DNA of 64,000 nt from Candidatus Forterrea multitransposorum CG_2015-17_Forterrea_25_41 (GTDB lineage: Archaea; Iainarchaeota; Iainarchaeia; Iainarchaeales; CSSED10-239): contig CP045477.1 of NCBI GenBank assembly GCA_009392915.1, positions 64,001-128,000 of the forward strand, in the 5' to 3' direction. The notes under the pieces were generated by a model that was given only the letters and a program-made list of their open reading frames with translations, searched no databases and was not told the origin of the DNA. The position numbers and the translations under genes are program-made. Shown here in pieces: positions 2,174 through 53,496 of the stretch (positions within the stretch are counted from its first letter, which is position 1; every line of letters starts with the position of its first letter).

Positions 2174-2185
2174 AAAGAAAGAAAA

Positions 2186-2605: not shown

Positions 2606-3460
2606 ATGAAAATGGCAGATGAATTTGATTTAAATGAAGACATGGGCTCTACTTCTAAAAGATCTGGAACTTCAAAACTTAGACTTGAAGGAATAATTCC
2701 AATTGTAATAATAATTATTGTTGTTTTATTAATTGCTTTTAAAACAAACATATTTTCAGGATCTTCAGATATATTTAGTGGAAAGGGATCAGCAGTTTTA
2801 ATTATTGGTTCTCCAAGCCCTAATTTACAATTAGTTTTAAACAATGCAGAAAATAAAGATTTAATTAAAGAAAAAAGACAAATAACGATGGATGCTCTTT
2901 TATATAATCCTACTGAAAGGATAAAAGGGTATGATATTATAATATTAGATCAAAGTTTATCTGCTGATAAATCAATTACAAGAACAGCAGGAGAGGCAAT
3001 AGCTTCTTTTGTAAAATCAGGTGGAAGTTTAATGGTTGTTTTAAACTCTGGAATTGAAAGACCAGGAGATCCTTCAGTTATTGGTTGGAAACCAACTTTT
3101 GGAGATATAGTTCCTGTTTCTTGTGATCCTACACTTTACAGTATTCCAAGTTGTAAACAACAATTAAGAGTAAATGGTATTTTATATGCTAATAGATACA
3201 ATAGTAAACAAGGTGCATATAAGATAATGTATGGTATTGAAAAAGTGCCTGCACTTGAATCTGCTGGACTTATTTCAACAGAGACATATCCTGTAACTGT
3301 TAATGGTAATGAAATTGCATATTTAGTTGATTCTAGAACAGGTACATACTATCCTGCAATTGTTGAAAAACCATTACTTTTAGGAAAAGTCATTTACTTT
3401 AATTATGATCCTGGACTTTCAGAAACAATTTTTGTAAATACTTTAAAATATTTAGGTTAG
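2606..3460 (+). CDS. membrane-anchored hypothetical protein (N-terminal TM, extracytoplasmic domain)
   Basis: N-terminal TM helix IIPIVIIIIVVLLIAF followed by a ~230-aa soluble domain. It sits where L11 would normally precede L1. Confidence 0.55.
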   Translation: MKMADEFDLNEDMGSTSKRSGTSKLRLEGIIPIVIIIIVVLLIAFKTNIFSGSSDIFSGKGSAVLIIGSPSPNLQLVLNNAENKDLIKEKRQITMDALLYNPTERIKGYDIIILDQSLSADKSITRTAGEAIASFVKSGGSLMVVLNSGIERPGDPSVIGWKPTFGDIVPVSCDPTLYSIPSCKQQLRVNGILYANRYNSKQGAYKIMYGIEKVPALESAGLISTETYPVTVNGNEIAYLVDSRTGTYYPAIVEKPLLLGKVIYFNYDPGLSETIFVNTLKYLG

Positions 3461-3461
3461 A

Positions 3462-3508
3462 TTTTTTTTAAAAAGAAAAAATCTTTTTCTTTTTTCTTCT
3501 TTTTTTTT
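3462..3508 (+). terminator. AT hairpin plus oligo-T tract downstream of 2606..3460
   Basis: AAAAAGAAAAAA-tc-TTTTTCTTTTTT followed by a T9 run immediately after the stop. This resembles archaeal oligo-T termination signals. Confidence 0.3.
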
Positions 3509-3633
3509 AAAAATATACATTTAAAAACACTTCTCTGCTATAATTATATTACTTTTAAAGCTATTTATAGTTTTAATATTATTAAAAAAACCGATATAAC
3601 TGCTTAAAATAAAGCAGGAGGTGCAAAGTAGAT

Positions 3634-4290
3634 ATGGATAAAAAGACATTAGAGTCTACCATTAAAGATTTATTTTCAAATCTTAAGAAAAGAAATTTTG
3701 ATGAATCAGTAGACTTAATTGTAACATTCAAAAATATGAATATTAAAAATAAAGATCATAGATTTGAATACTTTGTAAGTATACCTCATCCATTTGTAAC
3801 TAAAATAAAGACACTTGCATTTGTTAAAAATAAACAATTTATAGAGTCTTTAAAAGGTATAGTGGATAAAGTAATTCCTGATGAAGAAATATCAAAGATT
3901 ACTAAAAAAGAAGGTAAAAAACTTGCAAATGAGTTTGATTTAATTTTAGCAGAAGGTCCTGCTATGCTAACTGTGGGAAAATTCTTAGGACAAGTTTTAA
4001 GTCCAAGAGGAAAAATGCCTACAATTATGCCACCATCAGAACCAGCTGTAAAAAGTTTGATTGAATCTCAACTTTCAAAAGTAAAAGTAACTAATAAAAA
4101 AAGTAAATCTTCTGTTTCTTTAATGCTTAGAATTGGAAAGAAAAGTCAAGATACAGCTTTTATTGCAGAAAATACTTTAGCTGTTTTAAGTTCTATTGCA
4201 GATAAACTTCCAAATGGAAAACAGAATATTAAAGATGTTATTTTTAAAACAACAATGAGTGCACCTGTTAAGGTAGGAGGTGCTTTATAG
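3634..4290 (+). CDS. rpl1: 50S ribosomal protein L1
   Basis: L1 family N-terminus and length (218 aa). Lies in the conserved L1-L10-L12 order. Confidence 0.9.
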   Translation: MDKKTLESTIKDLFSNLKKRNFDESVDLIVTFKNMNIKNKDHRFEYFVSIPHPFVTKIKTLAFVKNKQFIESLKGIVDKVIPDEEISKITKKEGKKLANEFDLILAEGPAMLTVGKFLGQVLSPRGKMPTIMPPSEPAVKSLIESQLSKVKVTNKKSKSSVSLMLRIGKKSQDTAFIAENTLAVLSSIADKLPNGKQNIKDVIFKTTMSAPVKVGGAL

Positions 4291-14100: not shown

Positions 14101-14273
14101 GAGCTAAAAGAAAACAAGAAACTAAATCAGTTTTAGAAACACAAGAAAAAATAAAAGAAGAAATTAGAAAAGATAATTTTTCTAATATTACTAAGTCTGA
14201 GATTATAATAGGAAATAAGCCTATTATAAAGCCTGCAGAACCAAGACAGATTACTTTAGGTGAGCTTGATTAA
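11130..14273 (+). CDS. giant surface protein (1047 aa) with signal peptide, C-terminal TM anchor and cytoplasmic tail
   Basis: Signal peptide, then Ser/Thr/Asn-rich beta-type repeats with paired Cys. Near the C-terminus there is a TM segment FIFAIVLILLIALIIFLIVY followed by a basic/charged ~60-aa tail. Confidence 0.8.
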   Translation: MNYKYFFVFLLVVLFSSMVFSYTIGFDYAEVRTTSYPNYLNYQYAHYYDNIDLRYGVYGSGISSPVTIIVSPKVYGITTTGQRVFVHNIQTHSFSMNPSSFYTYSYNPMFSFDPAYQSYEVVLDLQSSDGSFNNSVSRYVYSQGTNPNPGGDDPTGDDPNVVSCDDFYVSGMEDIYLDEDSREYYNLYLVNSVDLPLTITSVTVSPNNPTNLEIEDITYPFTVSALQTRSAQIELFTDTVSSDYSNSFQIEVKGKYDNSLTCEKTYNVNYRILDAELENNGSCSDIRILDDYFTMSDNSSKTFEIEVSNASQDYYFEVDDIDLDTTNDSIIEASVRNTIDKIYTDSSKILKINVSSDDTSFYRTEKIDLELTGYLKRENREDKKCRIREDVSIRVSPDSSTGNTSNECDDIKIYTRDVFQDSQITENYSLQEGFYIYNGTNKKFTVSGINYKDNTMYADIFSKSFDYTLYPRSSNALNFDIRTSEVSENKLSNAEISIQGYFEGGLSCSYSDITSNFNLTIREENDFCSNVGIYDDSFVEGENYFTVYNNTNKDFTVNDIISQNSVNSNVGVIDSSFKVLKDSQKTFRVGSSGNGSFELLAKGVFSDGTSCDYTQTSSGYFNSDSGYDFSDTSCEFEFNYPNVKYISLNGDSLNFDFRNLTGKSGEIRLSAVGAVIEDPIIKFSSYSSFNKEIDLLNIKNPKMVLYTIEIYGCSKKSYFTNLYPLGNSIQGDVSFLTYPSNLISTKDKFISSFSLKNSSSFSEDVEIKFSGFTSAFNFVSSPYPLNPNTFSSSDNVSTVTINPNSTKNIYFGVDVLENAEYKKYNGYIEVYSNNKLLFKEPLSIDRSITTNNLLVNTMVEKTSVKNTVLLTFTFENKLPDLTRELYLSFEDENSFEVDGNRNISVAPLSVLERSFTVKYNEGSLFKYNLIDTDNSSLAYSGEVDLKEIDNSSNLLSGFFTLSDTKGFIFAIVLILLIALIIFLIVYGDKSRAKRKQETKSVLETQEKIKEEIRKDNFSNITKSEIIIGNKPIIKPAEPRQITLGELD

Positions 14274-15540: not shown

Positions 15541-16365
15541 TTGATTGTTATGAAAACAAACGTTTATAATCTTTTAGGAAAATCTATTAAGGAAATTGAA
15601 GTTCCAGAATACTTTAGACAAAACTACAGACCAGATCTTATTAAAAGAGCTGTTGTAGCTTCTCAAAGTAATTCTTATCAACCAAAGGCACCTTCTCCAT
15701 ATTCAAATAGATTAAATACTGCTGAATATAGAGGTGCAAGAAAGAAAAACACCATGGATAATTCTATTAATACTGGTAAAGCAAGGCTTCCAAGAACAAA
15801 AAATAGAAGAATTTTAATGGCTGGGAGAGTAGCTGGTGTTTCTCATGCTGTTGGTGGACCAAAAGCACATCCTCCAAAAGTTACAAAGATTTTAATTAAA
15901 AAAATTAATACTAAAGAAAGAACAAAAGCTATTTTAAGTGCAATTTCTGCAACTGCAAATTTAGGACTTGTTTCTACAAGAGGACATGTAATTCCTCAAG
16001 AAATTTCTCTTCCTATAGTTTTTGAAAATACTCTTGAAAATTTAACTAAAACAAAAGAAGTTTATGATATTTTAGAATCCTTAGGTCTTTCTGATAATGT
16101 TGAAAAAGCAAAAGATAATAAGTCTTATAGAGCTGGAAAAGGAAAGATGAGAGGAAGAAGATATAAGAGAAGAAAAAGTGTTTTATTTGTTTTAGGTGAC
16201 TCTAAGAATTATAAAGTTTTCCAAAACTTAGAAGGTGTTGATGTAATTGATGCATCTAAACTTTCAATAAAAGAACTTGCTCCAGGAACACATGCTGGTA
16301 GACTTACTATCTTTTCTGAAAGCGCTGTTGAAAAATTACAGGAGAGATTTTCAAAGGTGATGTGA
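15541..16365 (+). CDS. rpl4: 50S ribosomal protein L4
   Basis: Lies in the L3-L4-L23-L2 order. 274 aa with a basic Gly-rich loop (RGRRYKRRK). Confidence 0.9.
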   Translation: MIVMKTNVYNLLGKSIKEIEVPEYFRQNYRPDLIKRAVVASQSNSYQPKAPSPYSNRLNTAEYRGARKKNTMDNSINTGKARLPRTKNRRILMAGRVAGVSHAVGGPKAHPPKVTKILIKKINTKERTKAILSAISATANLGLVSTRGHVIPQEISLPIVFENTLENLTKTKEVYDILESLGLSDNVEKAKDNKSYRAGKGKMRGRRYKRRKSVLFVLGDSKNYKVFQNLEGVDVIDASKLSIKELAPGTHAGRLTIFSESAVEKLQERFSKVM

Positions 16366-16366
16366 T

Positions 16367-16639
16367 ATGGCTAAAACTTTAGAATACTATGATATTGTAG
16401 AATATCCTGTAATTACAGAAAAAGCTGTTGATTTAATCTCAACACAAAATAAATTAACATTTATTGTAAATAAAAAATCAAATAAAGCAGAAATTAAAGC
16501 TGCTGTTGAAAAATTATATAAAGTTAAAGTAAAAACTATAAATACTTTAGTTGATAGAAAAAGTAGAAAAAAAGCATTTGTAACACTTTCAAAAGAGTTT
16601 AATGCTCAAGATGTTGCAAATAAATTAGGAATATTATAA
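16367..16639 (+). CDS. rpl23: 50S ribosomal protein L23
   Basis: Small (90 aa) protein between L4 and L2 with L23-like sequence. Confidence 0.9.
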   Translation: MAKTLEYYDIVEYPVITEKAVDLISTQNKLTFIVNKKSNKAEIKAAVEKLYKVKVKTINTLVDRKSRKKAFVTLSKEFNAQDVANKLGIL

Positions 16640-16651
16640 GGGTTGTAAATT

Positions 16652-17365
16652 ATGGGAAAAAGACTTAGACTTCAAAGAAGAGGAAAAGGAACTCCAAAAT
16701 ATGCTGCAACTAATCATGCAAAAGTTGAAATAAGATATAATTATTTTAATGATACTCAATGTTTGAAAGGACAAGTTGTAAAATTATACTCAGATCCTAT
16801 AAGAACAGCTCCTGTTGCACAGATTTTATTTGAAAATGGTTCTATTGACAATGTTGTTGCTTGTGAAGGTTTAAAAACAGGTGATAGAGTTGTTTTTGGA
16901 AAAGATGCTGAAGTAAAATCAGGAAATGTTTTATTTTTAAATGATATTGAGCCAGGAAAAACTATCTTTAATATTGAAAAAAATTTTGGAGATGGTGGTA
17001 AATTTGTAAGAGCAACTGGACAATCAGCAACTTTAATGAGTAAAAAAGAAGATGTTGCGATTGTTAAGATGCCTTCAGGAAAAATAGTTAATTTCCCATT
17101 AAATGTTAGAGCAACAGTTGGTATTGTTGCAGGTTCTGGTAGACCAAATAAACCTTATGTTAAGGCTGGAAATAAATTCCATGCGATGAAAGCAAAAAGC
17201 AAACCTTATCCAAGATTAAGAGGAGTTGCAATGAATGCTGTTGATCACCCTTTCGGTGGACTTCAACACCACGTAGGACACTCAAAATCTACATCAAGAC
17301 ATGCTCCTTCTGGAAGAAAAGTTGGTGCTATTGGATCTAAGAGAACAGGAAGAAAGAAAAAGTAA
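16652..17365 (+). CDS. rpl2: 50S ribosomal protein L2
   Basis: Highly conserved L2 C-terminal region (NAVDHPFGGLQHHVGHSKSTSRHAPSGRKVG). Confidence 0.95.
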   Translation: MGKRLRLQRRGKGTPKYAATNHAKVEIRYNYFNDTQCLKGQVVKLYSDPIRTAPVAQILFENGSIDNVVACEGLKTGDRVVFGKDAEVKSGNVLFLNDIEPGKTIFNIEKNFGDGGKFVRATGQSATLMSKKEDVAIVKMPSGKIVNFPLNVRATVGIVAGSGRPNKPYVKAGNKFHAMKAKSKPYPRLRGVAMNAVDHPFGGLQHHVGHSKSTSRHAPSGRKVGAIGSKRTGRKKK

Positions 17366-31128: not shown

Positions 31129-31210
31129 GCAGGGGTTCCCGAGTGGTCAAAGGGGCAGGACTTAAGATCCTGTGCTTAGTGCTTCGCAGGTTCGAATCCT
31201 GTCCCCTGCA
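31129..31210 (+). tRNA. tRNA-Leu (anticodon UAA), class II with long variable arm
   Basis: 7-bp acceptor stem GCAGGGG/CCCCTGC and anticodon stem CAGGA/TCCTG. The anticodon loop is CTTAAGA. There is a 13-nt variable arm and a T-loop TTCGAAT. The discriminator is A and no CCA is encoded. Confidence 0.8.
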
Positions 31211-33452: not shown

Positions 33453-33534
33453 AAGGTTTTTAAATTTTTAAATAAGCTTTTAAATGTTACTATACATCTT
33501 ATATATAGTAATTAATTAATCTAAAAAGGTTAAT

Positions 33535-33546
33535 ATTGTTAACAAT
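33535..33546 (+). promoter_or_regulatory. perfect 12-bp palindrome ATTGTTAACAAT ~35 bp upstream of the TrmB-like gene
   Basis: Read directly from the sequence. It is embedded in a longer near-palindrome TAATATTGTTAACAATTATA. Confidence 0.25.
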
Positions 33547-33579: not shown

Positions 33580-34305
33580 ATGAAAGATAATTATTTAGTT
33601 TCACTTTTAAAAGAACTTAATTTAACTGAATATGAAGCAAAAGCTCTTGTTACGTTATTTAAATTTTCAGAATCTGATGCTCCAACTATTAGTAGAAATT
33701 CTGAAATTCCAAAAACTAGAATTTATGATGTTTTAGATAGACTTAAAGATAAAGGTTTTGTTTTAGAAGTTTATAAAAGTCCTAAAACCTATAAAATAGT
33801 TAATCCTGAAGAAATTTTTAAAGGACTTTTAGATTTAAAACAAAATGAACTTTTAAATCTTTCAAAAAAAGTAGATGATGTTATTTTAAACTCAACATGG
33901 TCTTCTTATGCAAATAGTAATCCTGAAAAAGTATTACAAGTAAACAATATTAAAGATTATAATAAATTTTTATCACAAGAATTTGAAACTGCAGAAAAAG
34001 AAATACATGGTTTTACAAATCTTGATGAAAGAATTGATTCTTTAAAATCTGTTTTTACAAATAAAAATTTATCAATTAATATTTTAACAAATCCAGTTAC
34101 AAAAATACATGAAATTCCAAAACATGTAACTATTCAAGAAACTAACCATTCAATGGATGCTTTTGTTTTAGATAAAAAGAAAGTTATTATGGCTTTAAAT
34201 GATTTATCTTCTCCTAAAAAAGCATATAATTTAACTGTTCTTGAAAATAATCCTACCCTTGCAAATGCACTCTTATCTCATTTTAAGGATTACTGGAAAA
34301 AATAG
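33580..34305 (+). CDS. TrmB-family transcriptional regulator (wHTH)
   Basis: N-terminal TrmB-like winged helix (LTEYEAKALVTLFKFSESDAPTISRNSEIPKTRIYDVLDRLKDKGFV). Confidence 0.55.
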   Translation: MKDNYLVSLLKELNLTEYEAKALVTLFKFSESDAPTISRNSEIPKTRIYDVLDRLKDKGFVLEVYKSPKTYKIVNPEEIFKGLLDLKQNELLNLSKKVDDVILNSTWSSYANSNPEKVLQVNNIKDYNKFLSQEFETAEKEIHGFTNLDERIDSLKSVFTNKNLSINILTNPVTKIHEIPKHVTIQETNHSMDAFVLDKKKVIMALNDLSSPKKAYNLTVLENNPTLANALLSHFKDYWKK

Positions 34306-34396
34306 TTTTTTTTAATATATTGAATACTTTTTTAAAGTTAACTATCTTTATAAATATATATAAGGGTATATTAACTTTTAAGAGGTAATAAATTAT

Positions 34397-36484
34397 ATGC
34401 AGTTAAAGAAACTAACTTTAGTTTTATTATTTTTATTTATTTTTTCCATACCAGTTTTTTCTTCTTCTATAACTCTTTATGTTTCCTCTCCTTTTTCCTC
34501 TTCATCTTCAAATTTTAGTATTTCTCCTTCACTTTCTTTTGACAAGTTATCTTTAGTTTCAGAAGATAATTTATCTTTATTAAGAGAGCAAAATATTATT
34601 GTTAAAGAAGAAATTATTAAAGAAAAAGAATCTTCTTTAGAAGATAATTCTCTGTTAGAAGAAATAAATTCTCCAAATCATATTTATGAAACTTATTTTC
34701 AAGATTCTGTAATGATTGGAGATGTTTATTTTCCAGAAGGTATAATTGATTCTTCTCAAGTAAGAGAAAGAAGAAATATTAACTCTCAGTCTACAGTTGA
34801 TAATATTTGGGGTACCACTCCATTAACTGGAGAATATCATATTCCTGTTTTTTTAGTTGATTTTTCAGATGTTCCACATACTCTTTCTAAAGAAGTTTTT
34901 GAAGAACAATTTAATTCTCCTCTTTACTTGGACGGTAATGGTACAAGTGTAAGTCAGTATTACAAGAAACAATCCTATGGTGAACTTGATATTACTTTTG
35001 ATGTTTATGATTGGAGAGAAATGCCTGAAACTTATGAATATTATAGTACAAGATTAGGTGTTTTTGGAGCTCAAACAATAGATCTTTTTGGAACTGGTCC
35101 AAATGCAATTGATTTAACTCAATATGATTCTGATAATGATGGTAGGATAGATGGTTTTGTAATTGTTCACGCTGGTTTTTCTTTACAGAACGCTGGTACT
35201 GGTCATATTAAGACATCTACTTTATTAATGTATTCTGATGAAATTTTAACCATTCAAGGTTTGCATTATGGTAATATAGCTGTTACTTCTGAGAGATATC
35301 CTAGTTGTTCTTCTGGTTTTAATGAAAATTTAATTCCATATCCAGATGATTGTAGAATTGGTGTTTTAGATCAAACACATGAGTTTGGTCATATTTTAGG
35401 TCTTCCAGACTTTTATGGTATTGATCCAAATACTGGTGGTCAATCTCCTGGTCTTCAAAACCTAACTATGATGATGATGTATGATGACATTCCTCAAAAA
35501 CCAATTAATTTAGATGCTTGGGCAAGATATTTTTTAGGTTGGATACAACCAACTGTAATTGAAGAGGGCATGGAAGGTGTTTATCCAGTTTATTCAATTG
35601 ACACCAATCCAGATGGTGCTTTTATTTTACAAGATCTAACTGAGATGGATGAACGTGAATTTTTTATAATTGAAAATAGATTTATGCAAAACTCCCCTTA
35701 TAATCAAGATACTTTTCTTTTAAACACTTCTCAACTAAATTGGGATTATTTAAATGGTCATTTTGGTGGAATTGCAGTTTATCATGTTGATGAGCAATAC
35801 ATTGAAGATAATTATCCAACTAACAGTATCATGTGGGATCCTGATGGAGATTTTTATGATGATACTATAGGGCATCCTGGAATCGTTTTTGAAGAAAATA
35901 TAAAATTTTCAGAAAATAATTGGGATTATTCATTAGGAGATTTATATTCTAGTGAACGTAATGCTGGTTTTGGAGATAATACTTTTGGTAATTTTGATAG
36001 ATACCAAAGATTTTATCCAGAATATAATATGTTATGGGATTATCACAATAAAGCCTATAATGGTAATTTAACTGGTGTTACTGTTGGCACTTTAAGTGGT
36101 AGTGGATCTATAGTTTATGCTTATCTTCAAAGTTATCAAGAAACTTTTAATGCTTTAATCTCTTCTCCAAAAAATAACAGATGGTATAAGTATACTAATA
36201 ATTTAAATTTCATTTCAAGTTATTATAATAATTTAGGAGATGTAAGTTGTGTTTGGGAAGATTCCAGTAATAATATTCTATCTCAAGATTGTGAATTTTC
36301 TGCAACTCCAGAAGATTTAGGTTTACCAATCAGTGAATGTTCTGAGAAAATCACTCTAACTTTAGAAATAACAGATCAAGAAACTGGTGATACAATTATT
36401 GATACTGTTGATATAAAGATTTATGAAACCATAAGAGATATTTGTGAGACTGCTCATAACAACACCCAAGCAGCCACAAAATAA
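34397..36484 (+). CDS. secreted zinc metalloprotease (HExxH; M6/InhA-like motif HEFGHILGLPDFY)
   Basis: Signal peptide, then a Ser-rich linker, then a catalytic zincin motif HEFGH-x3-LPDFY. 695 aa. Confidence 0.55.
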   Translation: MQLKKLTLVLLFLFIFSIPVFSSSITLYVSSPFSSSSSNFSISPSLSFDKLSLVSEDNLSLLREQNIIVKEEIIKEKESSLEDNSLLEEINSPNHIYETYFQDSVMIGDVYFPEGIIDSSQVRERRNINSQSTVDNIWGTTPLTGEYHIPVFLVDFSDVPHTLSKEVFEEQFNSPLYLDGNGTSVSQYYKKQSYGELDITFDVYDWREMPETYEYYSTRLGVFGAQTIDLFGTGPNAIDLTQYDSDNDGRIDGFVIVHAGFSLQNAGTGHIKTSTLLMYSDEILTIQGLHYGNIAVTSERYPSCSSGFNENLIPYPDDCRIGVLDQTHEFGHILGLPDFYGIDPNTGGQSPGLQNLTMMMMYDDIPQKPINLDAWARYFLGWIQPTVIEEGMEGVYPVYSIDTNPDGAFILQDLTEMDEREFFIIENRFMQNSPYNQDTFLLNTSQLNWDYLNGHFGGIAVYHVDEQYIEDNYPTNSIMWDPDGDFYDDTIGHPGIVFEENIKFSENNWDYSLGDLYSSERNAGFGDNTFGNFDRYQRFYPEYNMLWDYHNKAYNGNLTGVTVGTLSGSGSIVYAYLQSYQETFNALISSPKNNRWYKYTNNLNFISSYYNNLGDVSCVWEDSSNNILSQDCEFSATPEDLGLPISECSEKITLTLEITDQETGDTIIDTVDIKIYETIRDICETAHNNTQAATK

Positions 36485-36561
36485 AAAAATAAGTAAACCA
36501 TTTATATACTTTATGTTATATAATTTATAATATAATTATTTAAAATAAAAAATAAATTAAG

Positions 36562-39531
36562 GTGAATATTTTGATAAAAATAAAAAAAGGACAAATTTCT
36601 TTAGAAGCAATTATTATAATTGGTGTTATTGTTTTAGCAAGTATTATATTTGCGACATTCTATATTTCTAATGTTAATAAAAAAATAGATACTGCAAGTA
36701 ATCTAGATCCTAATTTTTCTGGAATGATTGGATCTGATGAAATGGGGTCAACTGATCCTATAACTATTGGTGAAGAACCAGGTCCAGGCCCAGGTCCAGG
36801 AGGAAGTACTTGTGGTGATAATATTATTGAAGGTACAGAAGATTGTGATGGTACTAATTTAGGTGGTGCTACATGTGAGTCTGAAGGTCAAGGTACAGGA
36901 GATTTATCTTGTAATTCAAATTGTACTTTTGATTATTCTGGTTGTTCTAGTCCAACAGCAAGTTATACAATAACTTCAAGTCATGGATCAAATGGAACTA
37001 TTTTTCCTTTAGGAGCTGTAACAGTTTTAGAAGGGGCAAGTAAAAAATTTAATTTGTATCCAAATGCAGGTTATGATGTAGATACTGTTTCAATTGATGG
37101 TGCAGAAGTTTCTCTTAGTGAAAGAAGAAGTTATACTTTTAATAATGTTACTTCCGGTCATACTATTCATGTAACTTTTAAACCTTATGCTTCAAATGAA
37201 CATATTATTTTTGCAAGTAGTGGTTCTCATGGAACCATAGATCCTGCAAGAAATAATACAGTTATAGAAGGAGATGATATTACTTTTACATTTAATCCAG
37301 ATACAGGATATCGTGTAGGTAATGTCTATATTGATGATACTACTGTTGGTTCAGAACAAATAGAGATTATTAATGATTTTTCTTCAAAAGATTCTGAAAA
37401 TAATAATTTATATTTTTCAGAAGAAGATGTTTTATATTTTGCATCTGATACAGGGACAGGTACTTCTTCAAATTTAGTTTATACTTTTGAAGATGTAGAT
37501 GATAGTCATACTATTCATGTAACTTTTATATCAAACACAACTCCTACATATACTTTAGAATATATTGCTGGAGCAAATGGTAGTATTTCTGGTCCAAATC
37601 CTCAAACTGTAAGTCAAGGAGAAGATGGTACAGAAGTATGTGCTGTTGCAGATGAAGGTTATGAATTTTTTAAATGGGATGATGATTATTATTCTGAATG
37701 TAGAACTGAAACAAATGTAACAAGTAATCAAACATATACTGTTATCTTTAATGAAAATGCAGGTCAAACAATGGCTATGAATTTAGAAGGTGTTGAATCA
37801 ACTCCAATAAATCAAAACTTTGATGTTGTTGTTAATACTTCTGAAACTCCAGGAACTGTAAGTTATGGTTTAGTTGCAGGATTATTAATTTATAATGATG
37901 TTGCAGGAGATTATTTGCCAACAAACAATTGTTCTTATAACGGAACTTTTGCTTCAAATCATACACTTGAAACAAATCAATCTCCAGGTATTGAAAATTA
38001 TACTTTTACATGTAATACTTCTGGAAACTATAAATTTACATTTACAGCAACAGATACAACTAACTCAACAAATGATGTTTCAAGAGATAAATTAATTACT
38101 GTTGTAAATAACCAAACAGCAGCACCAACATTTTCAATTGATGGAGGTACTTATTTTAATGATCAAACATTAACTTTAAGTTCAACAACTCCTAGTGCAA
38201 CTATAAAATACACAACTAATGGTACTATCCCAACTTGTACTACAGGAACAACTTATTCTCCTGCAAGTCCAATTCAAATTAATCAAATTTTAACAGTAAA
38301 AGCAATTGCTTGTAAATCTGGATATATTGATAGTCAAGTTGTTACAGAAATTTATAATTTAAAAGTTGGATATCCAGAACCAAGTGTTAATCCTGGTGTA
38401 TATTCTCAAGCACAGACAATTACTCTTTCAACAGAAACAATTGGTGCAACTTTGTATTATTCAACAGATGGTTCTGATGCTTTTGATGGAAGTGTTTACG
38501 TTCCAGGAGAAGAAATTATAATTTCAAAACCATATACTGAATTAAGAGTGGCAGGAGAAAAATCAAATTATAATGATAGTTCAGAATTTGATGAATATTA
38601 TTATATAAATGGTTATGAATCTCCAACTCCAAGTATGGTTTTTACAAATTATTATGGAGATGCATATAATCTTGTAGGTGCTGCAAATTTAACTCACTCA
38701 GATGTTTTCTTTGAAGATGAAGAAAATAATTTAGTAAGATTTGTTAATCCTAAATTAAATGGAGATTATTTTAACGGAAGTAATGCTTCAGGAGCTACAT
38801 TAATAGATTGTGAGGCATTTTGTTCTGAAAAGTATCTTGGAGGAACTTGTGATTCTTTTGATAAAACTAATTATTCTGGAAATGCAAATAATTTGATATA
38901 TTATAGAAATATGATTCCTGGTTCTGGTGGTGCAAATGATGTTTTCCCTTACACAATTGGGGGTGAGTTATCTAATTCTCCTCAATGGGCTTATGCTTCT
39001 GGAGCTATTGGTGGACCAGATAGAGTAGGATACTTCACTTGTGATTTTTCACACACCTCCAGTCCAGAAGATGCAGACTTTGGATTTATTGATTTATATA
39101 CTGAAGATTTATTATTAAATTATGGTGATCCATTTGATGGTACAGAATTCTATTATGATTCTTCAAGAGTAACTTTTGATAATGTTACAAAGTCTGGTTC
39201 AGAATATACTTATTCAGGTTTAAATGTTGTAGGTAATTTTGACACACCAGGCGCAACTGCTCCAACAGGAACAGTTTATATACTTTCAGATGATTTTTCA
39301 CAAGCTTGTGATGCTGTATGTGATGCTTTATATCAAGAAAGTTCTTGTGAAAATTATGATACAACAGATGTATATACTGCTAAAGGAGTTTCATATAATT
39401 ATTATCCTCCTGAATATGCAACAATATTTAATCCTAATTTAAGTACAGGTTATTATTGGACATCTGGAAGTCAACTTTTCTATGATGTTTGGTCAGAAGC
39501 TGTTCTTTCAGAAGTTACTTGTTCAAAGTAA
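36562..39531 (+). CDS. 989-aa adhesin-like protein with type IV pilin-like (class III) N-terminal signal peptide
   Basis: N-terminus KKGQISLEAIIIIGVIVLASIIF matches the class III/prepilin signal (cleavage after G, hydrophobic helix). This is followed by a GPGPGPGG linker, a Cys-rich module, three GYxF..W Listeria-Bacteroides-type repeat domains and a chitobiase/hexosaminidase C-terminal-like beta domain. Confidence 0.7.
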   Translation: MNILIKIKKGQISLEAIIIIGVIVLASIIFATFYISNVNKKIDTASNLDPNFSGMIGSDEMGSTDPITIGEEPGPGPGPGGSTCGDNIIEGTEDCDGTNLGGATCESEGQGTGDLSCNSNCTFDYSGCSSPTASYTITSSHGSNGTIFPLGAVTVLEGASKKFNLYPNAGYDVDTVSIDGAEVSLSERRSYTFNNVTSGHTIHVTFKPYASNEHIIFASSGSHGTIDPARNNTVIEGDDITFTFNPDTGYRVGNVYIDDTTVGSEQIEIINDFSSKDSENNNLYFSEEDVLYFASDTGTGTSSNLVYTFEDVDDSHTIHVTFISNTTPTYTLEYIAGANGSISGPNPQTVSQGEDGTEVCAVADEGYEFFKWDDDYYSECRTETNVTSNQTYTVIFNENAGQTMAMNLEGVESTPINQNFDVVVNTSETPGTVSYGLVAGLLIYNDVAGDYLPTNNCSYNGTFASNHTLETNQSPGIENYTFTCNTSGNYKFTFTATDTTNSTNDVSRDKLITVVNNQTAAPTFSIDGGTYFNDQTLTLSSTTPSATIKYTTNGTIPTCTTGTTYSPASPIQINQILTVKAIACKSGYIDSQVVTEIYNLKVGYPEPSVNPGVYSQAQTITLSTETIGATLYYSTDGSDAFDGSVYVPGEEIIISKPYTELRVAGEKSNYNDSSEFDEYYYINGYESPTPSMVFTNYYGDAYNLVGAANLTHSDVFFEDEENNLVRFVNPKLNGDYFNGSNASGATLIDCEAFCSEKYLGGTCDSFDKTNYSGNANNLIYYRNMIPGSGGANDVFPYTIGGELSNSPQWAYASGAIGGPDRVGYFTCDFSHTSSPEDADFGFIDLYTEDLLLNYGDPFDGTEFYYDSSRVTFDNVTKSGSEYTYSGLNVVGNFDTPGATAPTGTVYILSDDFSQACDAVCDALYQESSCENYDTTDVYTAKGVSYNYYPPEYATIFNPNLSTGYYWTSGSQLFYDVWSEAVLSEVTCSK

Positions 39532-39552
39532 TTTTAAAACAATTACTTTTAA

Positions 39553-39590
39553 AAAAGCTTAATTTCTTTTAAGCTTTTCTTTTTTTTTTC
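39553..39590 (+). terminator. perfect 10-bp hairpin (AAAAGCTTAA/TTAAGCTTTT) followed by T10
   Basis: Lies directly downstream of the adhesin gene stop. A stem-loop plus oligo-T is the classic termination signature. Confidence 0.55.
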
Positions 39591-39706
39591 TTTTTATATA
39601 GCTTTTTTTAAATAATTATATTTAAAAACATTCCTCCATATATAATATTTATATATATAGTTCTTTTTTTTAAAAAAACTAAAAAACCAATGACACTATA
39701 AGGAGG

Positions 39707-40255
39707 TTGTTTGTCATGTCTGAATTTATAAAATTCTCTGTACCTGAAGATTTAAGAGTTTTACAAGATGAAACTATTAAAAAATTATCAAAATCAGGTA
39801 AAATAAAAATAGGTATAAACGAAGTTACAAAAACAATTGAAAGAGGAAATGCAAAATTTGTTATTATTGCTGAAGATGTATCTCCTGCTGAAATTGTAAT
39901 GCATATACCAATAATCTCAAAAGAGAAAAAAATCCCTTTTTCTTATGCAAAAACTAAAGAAGATTTAGGTAAAATGGTTGGTATCTCTGCAAAAGCAAGT
40001 TGTGTTGCTATAACAGATGCTGGTTCAATGCAAAAAGAATTAACAACATTAATTGATAAGATTGAAGAAGTTTCTGGTGGTAAAAAAGCAGCTGTAAAAA
40101 CAGAAGATGTTAAAAAAGAAAAACCTTCTCCTAAAAAAGAAGAAGTAAAAAAAGAAGCTCCTTCTCCTAAAAAAGAAGAAGAAGTAAAAAAAGAAACACC
40201 TAAAGAAGAAAAACCAGAAAATAAAGAAGAAGTTAAAAAAGAAAACAAAGAATGA
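39707..40255 (+). CDS. rpl7ae: 50S ribosomal protein L7Ae with K/E/P-rich C-terminal repeat extension
   Basis: L7Ae core (GINEVTKTIERGNAKFVIIAEDVSPAEIVMHIPIISKEKKIPF). The C-terminal ~70 aa carry repeated KKEEVKKEAPSPKKEE. Confidence 0.85.
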   Translation: MFVMSEFIKFSVPEDLRVLQDETIKKLSKSGKIKIGINEVTKTIERGNAKFVIIAEDVSPAEIVMHIPIISKEKKIPFSYAKTKEDLGKMVGISAKASCVAITDAGSMQKELTTLIDKIEEVSGGKKAAVKTEDVKKEKPSPKKEEVKKEAPSPKKEEEVKKETPKEEKPENKEEVKKENKE

Positions 40256-47261: not shown

Positions 47262-47624
47262 ATGGTTACAATAAAAAATATGGCTGATAATCCTGAAAAG
47301 ATATGGTTGCAATTTCTTATATTGAGATTGATTTATGAAAATCCAACTTATGGTTATAAGTTAATTAAAGATATTAATAAAATAAGTAATGGAAAATATA
47401 TTGTTAAATCAGGTACTATGTATACTACACTTAGACGAATGGAAAAAAATAAATTACTAAATTCTATTTGGGAAAAAAATGAGTCTGGTCCTAGTAGTAG
47501 AATTTATAATCTAACTATAAAAGGTAAAATGAAACTTAAAAATTTACTTAAAATGGTTGTTGAAAGAAAAAAAATAATAGATCAGTTAATTAAATTTTAT
47601 GAAAAAGAATTTAAAGAACAATAA
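47262..47624 (+). CDS. PadR-family transcriptional regulator
   Basis: YGYKLIKDI...SGTMYTTLRRMEKNKLL...RIYNLTIKGK matches the PadR winged-helix consensus. Confidence 0.75.
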   Translation: MVTIKNMADNPEKIWLQFLILRLIYENPTYGYKLIKDINKISNGKYIVKSGTMYTTLRRMEKNKLLNSIWEKNESGPSSRIYNLTIKGKMKLKNLLKMVVERKKIIDQLIKFYEKEFKEQ

Positions 47625-47648
47625 ATATAATGTAAATTAAGATTATTT

Positions 47649-47873
47649 ATGAAAATAAAATTACATCAAATATTACTTTGGATTACAATAATTTCTTTAA
47701 TAGTTTTAGTTATATCTACTGTGCCTTTATTAGTTAGTTATTTAAAAAATCTAGATGTTAAATTTCCAATGTTTGTAACTATTCATGTTTGGTCTGGTAT
47801 TATACTATTAGTGGTTGTATTATTAAGAGTTTTTATTAATCGTAAAAAATTAAAGATAATGCTTACTAATTAG
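47649..47873 (+). CDS. small two-TM membrane protein
   Basis: 74 aa with two hydrophobic helices, lying between the PadR gene and the CARDB/ABC genes. Confidence 0.45.
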   Translation: MKIKLHQILLWITIISLIVLVISTVPLLVSYLKNLDVKFPMFVTIHVWSGIILLVVVLLRVFINRKKLKIMLTN

Positions 47874-47897
47874 TTATTTTAAAAATTAAGGAGTTAA

Positions 47898-49103
47898 TTG
47901 ATTAATATGTTTTCAAAAAAAATTATTTTAGTATCTGTTTTATTTTTACTTACATCTTTATTTTCGGGGTTGATTTTCTCTGAAAGATATATAGATAGTT
48001 CTTATGTTCAAGTTATTGCTCAAGAAGTAAGTCCTGAACCAGTAGAGCCTGGTCAAGATTTTTTACTAAAAGTTAGAGTTCATAATTTTGGAACAGTGGA
48101 TGCTAAAAATGTAAAAATTAATCTTGATTTAAATTATCCTTTTTATTTAAAAAATACAAGTGAGTCTTATATTGACTTTAATTCGATTTGTTCTAATTGT
48201 TCTGCAGAAAATACATATTATTTTACAGTTTCAAGTTCTGCAGTTTCAGGGATATATCCAATACATTTTAATATATCTGAAATAAATAATGAAACTGTTT
48301 CTTTTAAACCTCAAATAATAGATATTTCCATATTAGGTAAACCTGATTTAGTTTTAGAAACCATAAAAGTAGATCAAAATATTTCTGCCGGAGATATATT
48401 TAATATTAAATTTTTATTAAGGAATATAGGTACTGGGAATTCTAGAAATATAAAAATAATTCCTAATTCTGATGATTTTATGCTTATTGGGACAAATACT
48501 AAATGGTTTGAAGAATTAGGTCCCAATAAAGAAATTATTTTTGATTTAAATTTTATTTCAAACAAAGATTTAATTTCAAATAGTTATATTTTTCCTATAG
48601 ATCTTGAATTTTTAGGAGAAAAACAAAATTTTTATACCTCTTCATATAATATTGGAATTAATCTTTTAGGAAAAGCAGATTTATCTTTACAAAATTTAAA
48701 AATTACTCCTTTAAACCCTTCTTTAAAAGATTTAATTAATTTTGAAGGAATTATTGAAAATATAGGAAATGGAAAAGCAAATAATGTTTCTTTAGAATTA
48801 TTTGTTTCAAATGATGAGAATTATAAATATTATATTGGTCAATTAAATAAAGATGATGATGCTCCTTTTTATTTTAATGAAATTAAATTTAATTCTGTTG
48901 GAAATAATAAAGTAAATTTGATTGTAAATTATGATGATGATTACGGTAATTATAAAATAGAAATTCCTTTAAATCAAAATATAAATAAATCTAATAATTT
49001 ATCTTTATTTTTTATAGTTTTATTTTTATTTTTGGTTTTATTTTTTAGTTTGTATTTATTAAAAAATAATAAACACAATAAAAATAAAAAAATAAAGAAT
49101 TGA
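47898..49103 (+). CDS. CARDB-repeat (COG1361-like) cell-surface protein with C-terminal TM anchor
   Basis: Signal peptide and three CARDB-like repeats (e.g. VSPEPVEPGQDFLLKVRVHNFGTVDAKNVKINL). The C-terminus has a TM helix plus basic tail KNNKHNKNKKIKN. Confidence 0.7.
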   Translation: MINMFSKKIILVSVLFLLTSLFSGLIFSERYIDSSYVQVIAQEVSPEPVEPGQDFLLKVRVHNFGTVDAKNVKINLDLNYPFYLKNTSESYIDFNSICSNCSAENTYYFTVSSSAVSGIYPIHFNISEINNETVSFKPQIIDISILGKPDLVLETIKVDQNISAGDIFNIKFLLRNIGTGNSRNIKIIPNSDDFMLIGTNTKWFEELGPNKEIIFDLNFISNKDLISNSYIFPIDLEFLGEKQNFYTSSYNIGINLLGKADLSLQNLKITPLNPSLKDLINFEGIIENIGNGKANNVSLELFVSNDENYKYYIGQLNKDDDAPFYFNEIKFNSVGNNKVNLIVNYDDDYGNYKIEIPLNQNINKSNNLSLFFIVLFLFLVLFFSLYLLKNNKHNKNKKIKN

Positions 49104-49114
49104 TTTAGATTTAT

Positions 49115-50314
49115 ATGAATAAAAAAGATATTAAGCTAATGTTTTTTTTAGCTTATAAAAATATAATTAAAAGTAAATCTACTTTTATTGTAATTGTAGC
49201 TGTAATGGCTATGAGTTTTTTGTCAATAACTTTTTTTTCTGCAATTATTGATGGGTTAAGTTATGAATTTGAAGAGTCGATGATTGATGGTCAAACAGGG
49301 CATTTAATGATCGAACCATCTAATGAAGAAAGTTTTATATTTAATTCTGATAGATTAGAAAAAAATATTTCTAAAATTCCAGGAGTAATTGGTGTTTCTT
49401 CAAGATTAGAATCAAATATTTTAATTACTTATAAAAATGAAGAGCTAGGGGCACCTGTTTTCTTTATTGATCCTATTGATGAACAAAAAGTATCTAATTT
49501 TCATGAAAGTTTAATAGAAGGTAGTTTTCTTTCATATAAAGATACATCTGAAATTATTATTGGTTCTGATTTACTAGAACAGTATGCGCCTATAGATGAT
49601 ACTAAGAAAAGGTTTAATCTTAGAATAGGGGATAATATTATTTTAACTTTTAATAATGGTTATAAAAAAGAATATAAAATCAAAGGTATTTTTAAAACAG
49701 GTTCTAAGTTTAATGATGATAAAATTTTAATTAATAAAGAAGAATATTTTTCAATATTTAATAAAGAAGATATTTCTCATAAAATACTTGTTAAACTTCC
49801 TTCAAGAGGTCTTGAAAAAGAATATATTCAAAAGATAGAAGCTTTAGGAATAATTGAACAGATTAACCCTTGGGAAACTAAGATTGGTATGATTAAACAA
49901 TTTGTAGGAAGTCTTCAAATTACAAATCAGATAACTGGTTTTATAGGTTTATTAACTGCATTTGCAACAATTTACATAATTATTTTTATAAATGTAACTA
50001 ATAAAAGAAAGCAGATAGGTATATTAAAAGCTATAGGTATAAAAAAAAAAATTATTCTTGGATCATATATTATTCAATCTTTTATTTATGGTTTTGTAGG
50101 TGTTATTTTTGGAAATATTATTATGCAAATTTTGTTGGCTTTACTTGCAAGTTATCCATTATCTATGCCTATTGGGGATGTAGTTCCATTACTAACAATA
50201 GGTAAATTATTAACTACCTCTTTTATTTTAATTTTAGCCTCTATTGTTGCAGGTTTTTTCCCTTCTAGAAAAGCTTCTAATGATAATATCTTAGATGCTA
50301 TATTTGGAGGATAG
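49115..50314 (+). CDS. ABC transporter permease, FtsX/MacB-like
   Basis: N-terminal TM, a large extracytoplasmic domain and three C-terminal TM helices (FtsX topology). Precedes the ATPase gene. Confidence 0.75.
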   Translation: MNKKDIKLMFFLAYKNIIKSKSTFIVIVAVMAMSFLSITFFSAIIDGLSYEFEESMIDGQTGHLMIEPSNEESFIFNSDRLEKNISKIPGVIGVSSRLESNILITYKNEELGAPVFFIDPIDEQKVSNFHESLIEGSFLSYKDTSEIIIGSDLLEQYAPIDDTKKRFNLRIGDNIILTFNNGYKKEYKIKGIFKTGSKFNDDKILINKEEYFSIFNKEDISHKILVKLPSRGLEKEYIQKIEALGIIEQINPWETKIGMIKQFVGSLQITNQITGFIGLLTAFATIYIIIFINVTNKRKQIGILKAIGIKKKIILGSYIIQSFIYGFVGVIFGNIIMQILLALLASYPLSMPIGDVVPLLTIGKLLTTSFILILASIVAGFFPSRKASNDNILDAIFGG

Positions 50315-50317
50315 ATT

Positions 50318-51007
50318 ATGATTAAAAATATTATTGAAGTAAATAAACTTGAAAGAATATATTCTAATGGAATTGTTAAAACTTATGCCTTAAAAGACGT
50401 TTCTTTAAGTATAAAACCTGGTGAATTTGTTGCAATTATGGGGCCTAGTGGTTCTGGAAAAAGCACTTTACTTCATCAGTTAGGACTGTTAGATACTCCA
50501 ACTAATGGAAGTATTATTATTGATAATGAAGATGTATCGAAATTAACTGATAAACAAAAAACTACCTTTAGATTAGAAAAATTAGGTTATGTTTTTCAGT
50601 CATATAATTTATTACCAGAACTTAATGTTATTGAAAATGTTTTTTTAACCTCTATGGCTAAAGGTTTAGATCCTAAAGAATATAATTTGAGAGCAAAAGA
50701 TATTCTTGAAAAAGTAGGTTTAAAAGATAGATTGTATTATTATCCTTCTGAACTTTCTGGAGGTCAACAACAAAGAGTTTCTATTGCAAGAGCATTAGTT
50801 AATAAACCTAAAATTTTATTTGCAGATGAACCAACTGCAAATCTTGATTCTGATTCTTCTCAAGATATAATTGATTTATTTAAAAAATTAAATAAAGAAA
50901 TTAATCAAACTATTGTTATGGTAACACATGAATTAGAAGAAGGTAAAAAAGCAGATAGGATAATTTGGATTAAAGATGGTATTCTAGATAAGTCTGTAAA
51001 AGTTTAA
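50318..51007 (+). CDS. ABC transporter ATP-binding protein (MacB/LolD-type)
   Basis: Walker A GPSGSGKST, signature LSGGQQQRVSIARAL, Walker B ILFADEPTANLD. Confidence 0.9.
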   Translation: MIKNIIEVNKLERIYSNGIVKTYALKDVSLSIKPGEFVAIMGPSGSGKSTLLHQLGLLDTPTNGSIIIDNEDVSKLTDKQKTTFRLEKLGYVFQSYNLLPELNVIENVFLTSMAKGLDPKEYNLRAKDILEKVGLKDRLYYYPSELSGGQQQRVSIARALVNKPKILFADEPTANLDSDSSQDIIDLFKKLNKEINQTIVMVTHELEEGKKADRIIWIKDGILDKSVKV

Positions 51008-52560: not shown

Positions 52561-53496
52561 ATGAGTTATTTATCTAAACTTAAAAGAAATAATAAAACAT
52601 ATTATTATCTTGTAGAAAATATTCCTATATCTAAAGGTAGGCGAAAACAAATTAGAAAATATATAGGGACAATTAAACCTACAGATCAAAAATTATCTTT
52701 AGAACTATTAAAGTTTGAAAAAGAAATTACTTCTAAAAAAAAACAAATGCAAGGATTTACCTATTTAACTAAAGAAGAAATAAAAGAAGTAGATGAAATT
52801 AATTCAAATTTTTGGAAAAAATATAATAAATTATCAAAAACTGAGAGAGAAGAATTTTGGAATAATTTTATTGGAATTTTTGTTTTTAACACAAACTCAA
52901 TAGAAGGTTCAACTTTAACATTAAAGGAAGTTGAACTACTATTATCTGAAAATATATCTCCAAATAGACCTTTAGAAGATGTTTTAGAAGCAAAATCTGC
53001 AAAAAAAGCAATTAATTTTATTTTAAATTATAAATCTGATTTGTCAATAGATTTAATTACTAAAATTCATAAAATATATTTTAAAGAAAGCTTTCCAGAT
53101 ATAGCTGGTAAATTTAAAAGATTAAATAATAGAATAAAAGGATCAAAATTTGATACTACTCCAAAAGAACTAGTTTTAACTGATTTAAAAATACTTATAG
53201 ATAATTATAAAAAATTTAAAAAAGAATTACATCCAATAGAATTATCTGCTTGGTTGCATTGGTCTTTTGTAAAAATTCATCCTTTTCAAGATGGAAATGG
53301 AAGAATTTCAAGATTACTTATGAATTTTATACTTTTTAAAAATAAATATGCTTTAATAGATATTAAAACAAAAGAAAAACAAACATATTTTAATTCTCTT
53401 GAAAAATGTAATTATTTGAATAATGGAAAACCATTAGCTCAAAGATTAGTTAGAAGATTTAAAAAACAGTATAAAAATATATTTTCAAATTTATAG
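52561..53496 (+). CDS. fic: Fic-family AMP-transferase (class II, N-terminal inhibitory helix)
   Basis: Canonical Fic motif HPFQDGNGRISR. N-terminal inhibitory motif TNSIEG fits (S/T)xxxE(G/N). Confidence 0.85.
   Translation: MSYLSKLKRNNKTYYYLVENIPISKGRRKQIRKYIGTIKPTDQKLSLELLKFEKEITSKKKQMQGFTYLTKEEIKEVDEINSNFWKKYNKLSKTEREEFWNNFIGIFVFNTNSIEGSTLTLKEVELLLSENISPNRPLEDVLEAKSAKKAINFILNYKSDLSIDLITKIHKIYFKESFPDIAGKFKRLNNRIKGSKFDTTPKELVLTDLKILIDNYKKFKKELHPIELSAWLHWSFVKIHPFQDGNGRISRLLMNFILFKNKYALIDIKTKEKQTYFNSLEKCNYLNNGKPLAQRLVRRFKKQYKNIFSNL

Follow-up and report, generated by a model that had tools for sequence, protein, structure and literature searches.

A 64-kb window of the small genome of Candidatus Forterrea multitransposorum, an archaeon of the Iainarchaeota (contig CP045477.1; the window is the whole stretch analysed, and locus labels L001-L099 designate comparison DNA) harbours two adjacent genes encoding a secreted M6 metalloprotease of the immune inhibitor A type (695 residues, 34397-36484) and a large modular surface protein with a class III, or prepilin-type, signal (986 residues, 36571-39531). 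We hold, with slightly better than even confidence, that they form a two-gene extracellular unit, composed of a modular pilin-like display or adhesion protein and a secreted M6 protease. What the sequences show directly is the identity of the domains, the integrity of the catalytic residues, the class III motif and the strict adjacency of the two genes. A preliminary description of the same DNA had grouped both genes with the TrmB-type regulator encoded upstream (241 residues, 33580-34305) in a three-gene surface-attachment module closed by a strong terminator. Its three open reading frames (ORFs), its sequence motifs and its hairpin followed by ten T were all recovered, on the plus strand, as are all the features of the three genes given below.

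Pairing of the protease and class III-signal genes

Further Iainarchaeota/Diapherotrites loci were obtained by scanning one genome per species, and pairs were recognised by ORF and motif analysis. At 10 of the 10 distinct loci with both flanks visible (the window, L007/L022, L008/9, L010/11, L013, L014, L018, L020, L023 and L072), the M6 homologue (31-58% identity) lies immediately beside a class III-signal gene; five further loci (L015, L016, L017, L019 and L021) are cut by contig ends and stand outside this count. The paired genes are always co-directional, with spacers of 58-139 bp, and the protease gene comes first in four loci and second in six. Their contexts differ, and include a ribosomal-protein cluster, EF1A/S10-PolD, FtsJ and others. 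In L007, the pair lies between EF1A/S10 and PolD, and the partner of the protease comprises 814 residues. In L008/9, it follows an FtsJ-like gene and the partner, of 1578 residues, carries nine CHB_HEX_C domains and an RCC1 propeller, while in L010/11 the order is reversed, class III genes of 172 and 864 residues being followed by the protease. The proteases of these three loci (45-51% identity) all neighbour a large CHB_HEX_C protein. Some genomes possess two or three pairs, namely STF1_257 (L004/L012, L072), STF1_294 (L013, L023) and bin_363 (L018, L022). Within ~280 kb of non-redundant Iainarchaeota DNA, a sample that is centred on M6 genes and whose loci share ancestry, so that the counts convey no probability, 13 ORFs bear the signal, 10 of which touch an M6 gene and one a partner gene. 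None was found in ~110 kb sampled away from M6 genes. Rearrangement, relocation and duplication have not broken this linkage, which suggests that the pair is selected for. A functional link between the protease and the pilin-like protein, put forward as a possibility in the preliminary description, is therefore upheld by a pairing that persists across Iainarchaeota in varied contexts and in both orders. The literature searched returned no description of a class III-signal gene paired with an M6 protease in DPANN.

Three of the loci reaching a contig edge show other arrangements. L017 (1-3005) and L021 (2-2903), which both end at contig edges, contain tandem M6 genes with no class III gene visible. 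L016 encodes an 876-residue class III-signal protein (1086-3716; MMVKKKKA, then QVALE...) bearing GLUG motifs and matching, weakly, the N-terminal region of the M26 IgA1 metalloprotease; its gene is located ~4 kb upstream of the M6 gene and does not adjoin it.

The partners of the proteases span 328-1578 residues and have in common the signal and its helix, followed by a Gly/Pro or acidic linker. At least one six-Cys module is present in nine of the ten, and an immunoglobulin-like (Ig-like) signature domain in eight. The distal parts vary from partner to partner, and comprise B-repeats, CHB_HEX_C arrays, an RCC1 propeller, Cys-rich arrays or a short C-terminal Cys module. The divergence of the proteases correlates with that of the first 140 residues of their partners (r=0.76, Mantel p ~2e-4). 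Strict adjacency together with correlated divergence is what a dedicated enzyme-substrate pair would show, and the protease may act on its own partner, maturing, activating or shedding the pilin-like protein, for example by a cut in the Gly/Pro linker; alternatively, the proximal Cys-rich part of the partner may be an inhibitor or a chaperone of the protease. The conserved parts of the partners are indeed the proximal linker, the six-Cys module and the Ig-like domain, the distal modules being free to vary. However, the linkers differ greatly in length and sequence, and no conserved cleavage motif was identified in them. Moreover, the same M6 catalytic domain is fused to CHB_HEX_C arrays in some bacteria and in other archaea, where the fusion fits targeting better than processing. 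The M6 enzymes characterised so far, InhA and PrtV, attack foreign proteins outside the cell with broad specificity. Such an activity is documented for PrtV (PMC2613228). A protease dedicated to its own partner therefore appears rather improbable to us, and we retain the two-gene extracellular unit as the preferred reading.

The modular pilin-like protein and its protease partner

The large gene was previously described as a 989-residue ORF (36562-39531). This ORF exists, but its GTG codon at 36562 falls within the Shine-Dalgarno sequence AGGTGA (36560-36565), and the true start is the TTG at 36571, 5 nt past this invariant element, yielding a precursor of 986 residues (Pfam and orthologue gene calls). 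Gene calls for the identical protein and for orthologues with 83-85% identity start at the TTG position (M[IT][KR]IKKGQ), and an exact-sequence database look-up with the 989-residue form returned no match because the databases use the TTG start. The class III signal (36571-36696; PF04021 and orthologues) begins with the basic seven-residue leader MIKIKKG, ending in Gly, with a predicted cleavage before Q, followed by QISLEAIIIIGVIVLASIIFATFYISNVNKKID, which places Gln at +1, Ser at +3 and Glu at +5 ahead of a long hydrophobic stretch. The DUF361-type motif reads here QISLEAIII, Ile replacing Leu at +9, and continues with GVIVLASIIFATFYI. From Ile7 (989-residue numbering) to about residue 55, the sequence is invariant in four orthologues except for an I/V exchange at +2, for an overall identity of 83-85%. 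A [KR][GA] leader pattern before Q, together with the same signal, occurs in 13 related genes, and AlphaFold 2 (AF2) predicts a helix at residues 11-42 with low to moderate confidence. TIGR04205 gives sub-threshold matches only. The gene is the only ORF of the window with a class III signature, and the NCBI name of the identical protein, NCP79551.1, is 'class III signal peptide-containing protein'. The QxSxE motif, the leader, the helix, the invariance among orthologues and the NCBI name all agree with the earlier assignment of a prepilin-type signal to this large multidomain surface protein.

The QxSxExxxL/DUF361 motif with Q at +1 marks the substrates of EppA, the dedicated prepilin peptidase that processes DUF361-type proteins in Methanococcus (PMC2910488), and, according to a recent survey, DPANN possess Epd-like 'system 1' type IV filaments (bioRxiv 10.64898/2026.04.22.720090). 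The large protein shares with the DUF361/Epd-type EppA substrates of Methanococcus maripaludis (PMC2910488, PMC3875500) a basic leader and a QxSxExxx[L/I] motif right after the cleavage site. In contrast to the Epd pilins, which are small, it carries this signal on a 100-kDa multidomain protein, and its gene lies outside a pilus cluster.

The helix is followed by a Gly/Pro-rich linker and a 45-residue six-Cys module (36697-36945; CGDN..EDCDG..TC..LSCNSNC..GC). A sub-threshold match to TIGR02232, a myxococcal Cys-rich repeat, was obtained with relatives only, and the module was not assigned to this family. In L018, a 122-residue gene (16291-16659) encodes a signal, a helix, a linker, the same six-Cys module and nothing else. 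The N-terminal 125 residues of the window protein thus match a self-standing pilin-sized unit, and this comparison supports a pilin module onto which passengers have been grafted. The first passengers are three divergent InlB B-repeat (Flg_new_2) domains (36961-37758; residues ~134-208, 214-325 and 330-399; PF18998, E=7e-12, two stretches), the limits of B-repeats 1 and 2 being drawn by eye. Hundreds of bacterial B-repeat proteins match this part, and most database matches of the large protein are bacterial B-repeat surface proteins aligned over the repeats only. B-repeat 1 is the best-modelled part of the protein, with an AF2 predicted local distance difference test score (pLDDT) of ~76. Then comes the Ig-like domain that serves as family signature (37768-38109, residues ~403-516; motif NCSYNGT...F.CN..G.Y.F.F), with its invariant pair Cys457/Cys484, for which Pfam gives weak matches only (Y_Y_Y, GOLD). 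It precedes two CHB_HEX_C_1/Fn3_assoc domains (38140-38577; residues 527-595 and ~604-672, the boundary of the second copy being approximate; PF13290, E=1e-19, two stretches, and PF13287). The passenger domains Flg_new_2 and CHB_HEX_C_1 are common in unrelated bacterial surface proteins.

The C-terminal region (38587-39528) is an orphan without any Pfam match, and its Cys spacing delineates two modules of ~150 residues. In these last 314 residues, the Cys residues of each module (750/754/763/827 in one, 916/920/929/987 in the other) are spaced as C-x3-C-x8-C-x58-63-C. No match was returned when the C-terminal 320 residues were used in a word-index homology search, and an exhaustive HMMER profile search of 1.84 billion representatives with this region retrieved, besides the window protein, only three weak bacterial NHL-repeat proteins. 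The latter were rejected as homologues because the match is a short 'NNL[IV]R..P' motif boosted by repetition. BLAST and phmmer comparisons of module 1 with module 2, and with the C-termini of the partners, give marginal scores only; the shared Cys spacing and motifs that look similar by eye suggest that the two modules are related. The AF2 model of the region (pLDDT 31.7) is unusable. That of the full-length protein, with a mean pLDDT of 38.5, supports only the N-terminal helix, an unstructured stretch of ~85 residues and beta-rich domains. Thr, Ser, Asn and Gly abound in the protein, which contains 26 N-glycosylation sequons. Of note, the archaeal protein P0011 (JGI 'flagellin-like protein', 1332 residues) has a different class III N-terminus (…RAISPIIATLLMIAIAVVA…) followed by about a dozen InlB B-repeats, indicating that giant B-repeat proteins with pilin-type signals exist outside Iainarchaeota too.

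This architecture resembles that of the modular type IV pilins, such as PilB and PilC of Streptococcus sanguinis and CofB of enterotoxigenic Escherichia coli (ETEC), in which a small pilin module, introduced by a short Gly-terminated leader and a hydrophobic helix with Glu5, bears non-pilus modules grafted through a linker, lectin-like, Ig-like or vWA in their case (PMC8179133). Modular pilins are expected to be low-abundance or tip subunits mediating adhesion (PMC8179133). The window protein differs from them by being archaeal, by its DUF361/EppA-type signal with Q at +1, and by its head, a 45-residue six-Cys knot instead of a beta-sheet lollipop. Its passenger of ~860 residues is as long as the whole of the largest example in the modular-pilin survey, an 860-residue protein (PMC8179133), and its incorporation into a filament is putative.

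Within a genome, the N-termini of the partners are much alike. Over mature residues 1-35, protease-linked paralogues from the same genome are 66-80% identical, compared with a cross-genome mean of 47% in this small sample. In the sets L004/L072 (STF1_257), L013/L023 (STF1_294) and L007/L018 (bin_363), leaders and helices are near-identical, while the proteases are only 33-45% identical. A common assembly interface would give such a likeness, though gene conversion or concerted evolution could yield the same result. The likeness also bears on whether a pilus is involved at all. The class III signal may instead be a cleavable signal-anchor, membrane-bound or bindosome-like, in a free-living fermenter that binds and digests environmental glycoproteins for nutrition. 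In archaea, non-pilin proteins can bear class III signals too, among them some extracellular proteases and proteins that bind sugars (PMC2910488; bioRxiv 10.64898/2026.04.22.720090). According to one report, the anabolic capacity of Iainarchaeota may suffice for a free-living existence (PMC10936187), and no pilus genes lie near the pairs. However, a helix that is highly conserved, and near-identical among the paralogues of one genome, fits a filament interface better, as does the existence of a stand-alone pilin-sized version, and the known bindosome substrates likewise need a type IV filament-like assembly system. We regard a pilus-free signal-anchor as unlikely, though a serious contender, and keep a pilin-like role for the large protein in what follows.

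The protease gene (PF05547, TIGR03296 and InhA profile match) encodes a Sec-type signal peptide (MQLKKLTLVLLFLFIFSIPVFSSS; read by eye from the sequence), a Ser-rich N-terminal region, a catalytic domain at residues ~152-428 and a C-terminal PKD-like domain containing Cys (residues ~579-678); the protein has no membrane anchor. PF05547 (Peptidase_M6) scores 42.1 bits for a cut-off of 22, and TIGR03296 reaches 108 bits, just under its cut-off of 110.8. The zinc-binding and catalytic motif HEFGHILGLPD (35378-35410, residues 328-338) conforms to HExxHxxGxxD, an Asp-zincin motif (PMC3890501), and H328, E329, H332, G335 and D338 are invariant in an alignment of 17 homologues (34-91% identity). Searching the Protein Data Bank (PDB) with the profile of these 17 homologues returns only immune inhibitor A (4YU5/4YU6; E=8e-10 for 4YU5), through the HExxH active-site region. 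The identity to bacterial M6 members is only about 25-30%. The assignment to MEROPS family M6, a check suggested in the preliminary description, is well supported by PF05547, the invariant motif and the InhA profile match, and the secreted zincin announced there is borne out by its intact HExxH, its Sec-type signal and the M6 profiles. The protease shares with immune inhibitor A and PrtV the HExxHxxGxxD motif, the M6 domain, the similarity to InhA 4YU5, a secreted multidomain layout and a C-terminal PKD-like domain. What sets it apart is its archaeal clade, in which genomes carry multiple paralogues and the M6 gene always stands beside a class III gene wherever both flanks are visible. The signals of all the protease homologues examined are of the Sec type, not class III.

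The TrmBL2-like neighbour and the genomic setting

The gene upstream of the pair (33580-34305; ORF list and PF01978) encodes a TrmB winged helix-turn-helix at residues 10-77 (E=8e-20). As in the TrmBL2 of Thermococcales, no C-terminal sugar-binding effector domain of the TrmB/TrmBL1 type (about 340 residues) is present: residues 4-241 align end to end with residues 4-259 of the TrmBL2 structures 5BPD and 5BOX, while the sugar-sensing TrmB and TrmBL1 align with the N-terminal part only. The E-value with TrmBL2 is only ~1e-8, the NCBIfam equivalog scores are far under their cut-offs (42.6 versus 530 bits), and the window gene is tied to ribosomal-protein genes, not to the pair. TrmBL2, a protein of 264 residues devoid of a sugar-binding domain, is the general DNA-binding or chromatin-type representative of the TrmB family. 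The TrmB-type label is thus correct for the winged helix-turn-helix, and the protein as a whole is TrmBL2-like.

The three ORFs are flanked on one side by the rpoD-L18e-L13-S9-rpoN-S2 cluster and on the opposite side by L7Ae-S28e-L24e-aIF5B. In other genera, a metagenome scan retrieved TrmBL orthologues of 67-73% identity. S2-TrmBL-L7Ae-aIF5B is the gene order of L093, L094 and L099, where the slot between TrmBL and L7Ae is empty. In L095 (6798-9443), it is filled by an unrelated 881-residue membrane protein with two RCC1 propellers, and in L097 (6754-8061) by an AAA_14/DUF4143 gene on the opposite strand. The protease/pilin-like pair occupies this slot (34306-39706 in the window) only in the genus of the window, i.e., in the window, L001-L006, L012 and L092. 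The slot looks like a recurrent insertion site in an otherwise rigid ribosomal-protein neighbourhood.

These comparisons bear on the three-gene operon proposed earlier, in which a TrmB-type regulator would control surface attachment through a palindromic operator located upstream of its own gene. In the window, as in congeneric genomes (including L092), the three genes do stand side by side and point the same way. Their common direction carries no information, though, since the plus strand holds nearly all the genes from 11 kb to 53 kb. Outside the window genus the three genes do not occur together, the TrmBL orthologues lying in the S2-TrmBL-L7Ae context without the pair or beside unrelated genes, and no TrmB gene adjoins any of the nine other M6/class III pairs. 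The regulator aligns over its full length with TrmBL2 and not with the sugar-sensing TrmB, and a run of eight T (34306-34313) follows its stop codon directly. The palindrome TTGTTAACAA is present at 33536-33545, but sequences with at most one mismatch occur 12 times versus 12.6 expected, and it is broken or deleted in the orthologous promoters, leaving no grounds for regarding it as an operator. The operon is very improbable and, because its genes do not co-occur in related genomes, the three-gene module is refuted: the TrmBL2-like gene is a bystander of the conserved ribosomal-protein neighbourhood, into which the pair has been inserted. The earlier proposal that protease and regulator belong to the same system as the large protein thus holds for the protease, tied to the pilin-like gene by the ten-locus pairing, and fails for the regulator. 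The case also carries a lesson for annotation, as a regulator found beside a module can be a bystander of a conserved ribosomal-protein neighbourhood.

TATA-like blocks precede each of the three genes and are invariant among species whose proteins have diverged by 12-17%. The TrmBL gene has a conserved promoter-like block at ~33470-33510. Three species with 83-85% identical proteins have an almost unchanged spacer ahead of the pilin-like gene, and this spacer contains a conserved promoter-like block (TTTATATA at 36501-36508) that forms, with the Shine-Dalgarno sequence, the element 36499-36565. No T-run was found between the protease stop codon and the pilin-like gene. The simplest reading of these signals is that TrmBL is transcribed alone, and that the protease transcript can continue into the pilin-like gene, which may have its own promoter. 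The likely end of the transcription unit (39553-39589) is a 10-bp AT-rich hairpin, AAAAGCTTAA-N6-TTAAGCTTTT (39553-39578), followed by ten T (39580-39589). The folding energy of the hairpin is -9.4 kcal/mol (z=-2.84), and the orthologous loci retain it. It has only two G-C pairs and was missed by the terminator scan.

The window contains about 25% guanine plus cytosine (GC). At 34-40 kb, GC is slightly raised and the AT skew altered; these shifts were not accepted as evidence of horizontal transfer and, in our reading, reflect the Thr/Ser/Asn/Gly-rich proteins encoded there. The ribosomal-protein cluster includes a tRNA-Leu(TAA) gene (31129-31210), between rpoD and L18e. The L7Ae gene (39707-40255, probable start ATG 39716) encodes a Lys/Glu/Pro-rich C-terminal tail of ~60 residues with imperfect repeats (KKEKPSPKKEEVKKEAPSPKKEEEVKKETPKEEKPENKEEVKKENKE), which are the source of minus-strand terminator-like matches at 40125-40184. 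The length of L7Ae differs among relatives, from 155 to 219 residues by ORF calls. Further upstream, a 1047-residue ORF (11130-14273) without any Pfam match ends with a hydrophobic segment and basic residues (GFIFAIVLILLIALIIFLIVYGDKSRAKRKQETK), which suggests a C-terminal membrane anchor and another large orphan surface-protein candidate. A cluster at 47262-51007 encodes a PadR regulator, a 74-residue protein, a CARDB-domain protein (401 residues), an FtsX permease (399 residues) and an ABC ATPase (Walker A at ~50441). It is kept in congeneric genomes, the 74-residue gene being taken from the gene calls of L001, L004 and L005. It is followed, amid small unannotated ORFs, by a 311-residue Fic/DOC-domain protein (52561-53496, E=2e-19). 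Lastly, the segment 54381-59156 encodes a 1192-residue Sec-signal protein with Big_13, then a 394-residue geranylgeranyl-reductase-like flavoprotein. In L015 (3153-7748), genes for an 1128-residue protein (fn3/Big_13) and a 394-residue protein lie immediately upstream of the M6 protease gene; judging from order and size only, the 394-residue genes of the window and L015 would be equivalent.

Proposed function and significance

If we assume that the pair works as an extracellular unit, the leader of the pilin-like protein would be cleaved at G7/Q8 (KKG before Q) by a prepilin peptidase of the EppA/PibD type, and the protein would be held at the cell surface through its N-terminal helix. Since not every subunit can carry a 100-kDa passenger, it would most likely occupy the tip of an Epd-like type IV pilus or be one of its low-abundance subunits; otherwise, it would be a membrane-anchored stalk. 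The distal modules of the ~860 residues grafted on the pilin module would bind a target coated with glycans or proteins. The co-expressed protease would digest proteins at the bound site, possibly docked on the conserved proximal part of its partner. Candidate targets are the surface of a host, that of a prey or an environmental protein; the host-contact, episymbiont framing of the preliminary description seems doubtful to us.

For the docking step, a precedent exists in the type IVb pairs CofB-CofJ and TcpB-TcpF, in which, as here, a secreted protein with a Sec signal is co-encoded with a large modular pilin-like protein, and where the tip pilins CofB and TcpB bind the co-encoded secreted CofJ and TcpF (PMC6048534, PMC9565799, PMC10120004). 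Those partners, however, are encoded inside full pilus operons and their secreted proteins are not proteases, whereas the secreted partner in the window is an M6 zincin and its interaction with the pilin-like protein is hypothetical.

Several points weigh against the two-gene unit as presented above. The ten loci are related by descent and are not ten independent events. The PF04021 score of the large protein, 23.5 bits, lies 0.2 below the gathering cut-off of 23.7, which its homologue in L007 exceeds with 25.0 bits. Past the helix, the protein has no recognisable globular pilin head except the small six-Cys module, and the AF2 models are of low confidence. A search for a prepilin peptidase and a pilus ATPase, as advised in the preliminary description, was conducted within the window and 40 archaeal loci: neither the window nor the comparison loci yielded a prepilin peptidase, an assembly ATPase or a platform gene, and a regular-expression scan of the window and the 40 loci for the Walker A signature of secretion ATPases matched only the ABC ATPase. 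Each gene has its own conserved TATA-like block, and co-transcription is thus only putative. The B-repeat and chitobiase-C-like (CHB_HEX_C_1) domains reported earlier are present, but 'adhesin' is an inference from domain types, and physical contact between the protease and its partner is a pure inference.

Large class III-signal proteins with binding domains are already known in archaea (PMC2910488; bioRxiv 10.64898/2026.04.22.720090), and the window protein is already annotated as such in GenBank. The new element appears to be the obligatory M6/class III pairing and the expansion of these pairs, with their free variation in distal binding modules, within Iainarchaeota. Should the two proteins really work as a unit, the modular pilin concept would come to include archaea and an enzyme partner, and a concrete and testable handle would be gained on how Iainarchaeota, whose free-living or symbiotic lifestyle is still disputed, meet surfaces, be they hosts, prey or detrital protein. 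A bolder version, speculative and improbable as it stands, is that of 'proteolytic pili', in which each paralogous modular pilin, located at a pilus tip, would recognise a given surface and carry or deliver its cognate Sec-secreted M6 protease. Were this true, archaea would possess a counterpart of CofB-CofJ and TcpB-TcpF that bears an enzyme, the paralogue families would represent a diversifying repertoire of target specificities, and these tiny cells could breach the proteinaceous surface layer (S-layer) of a host or prey, or digest protein at a distance.

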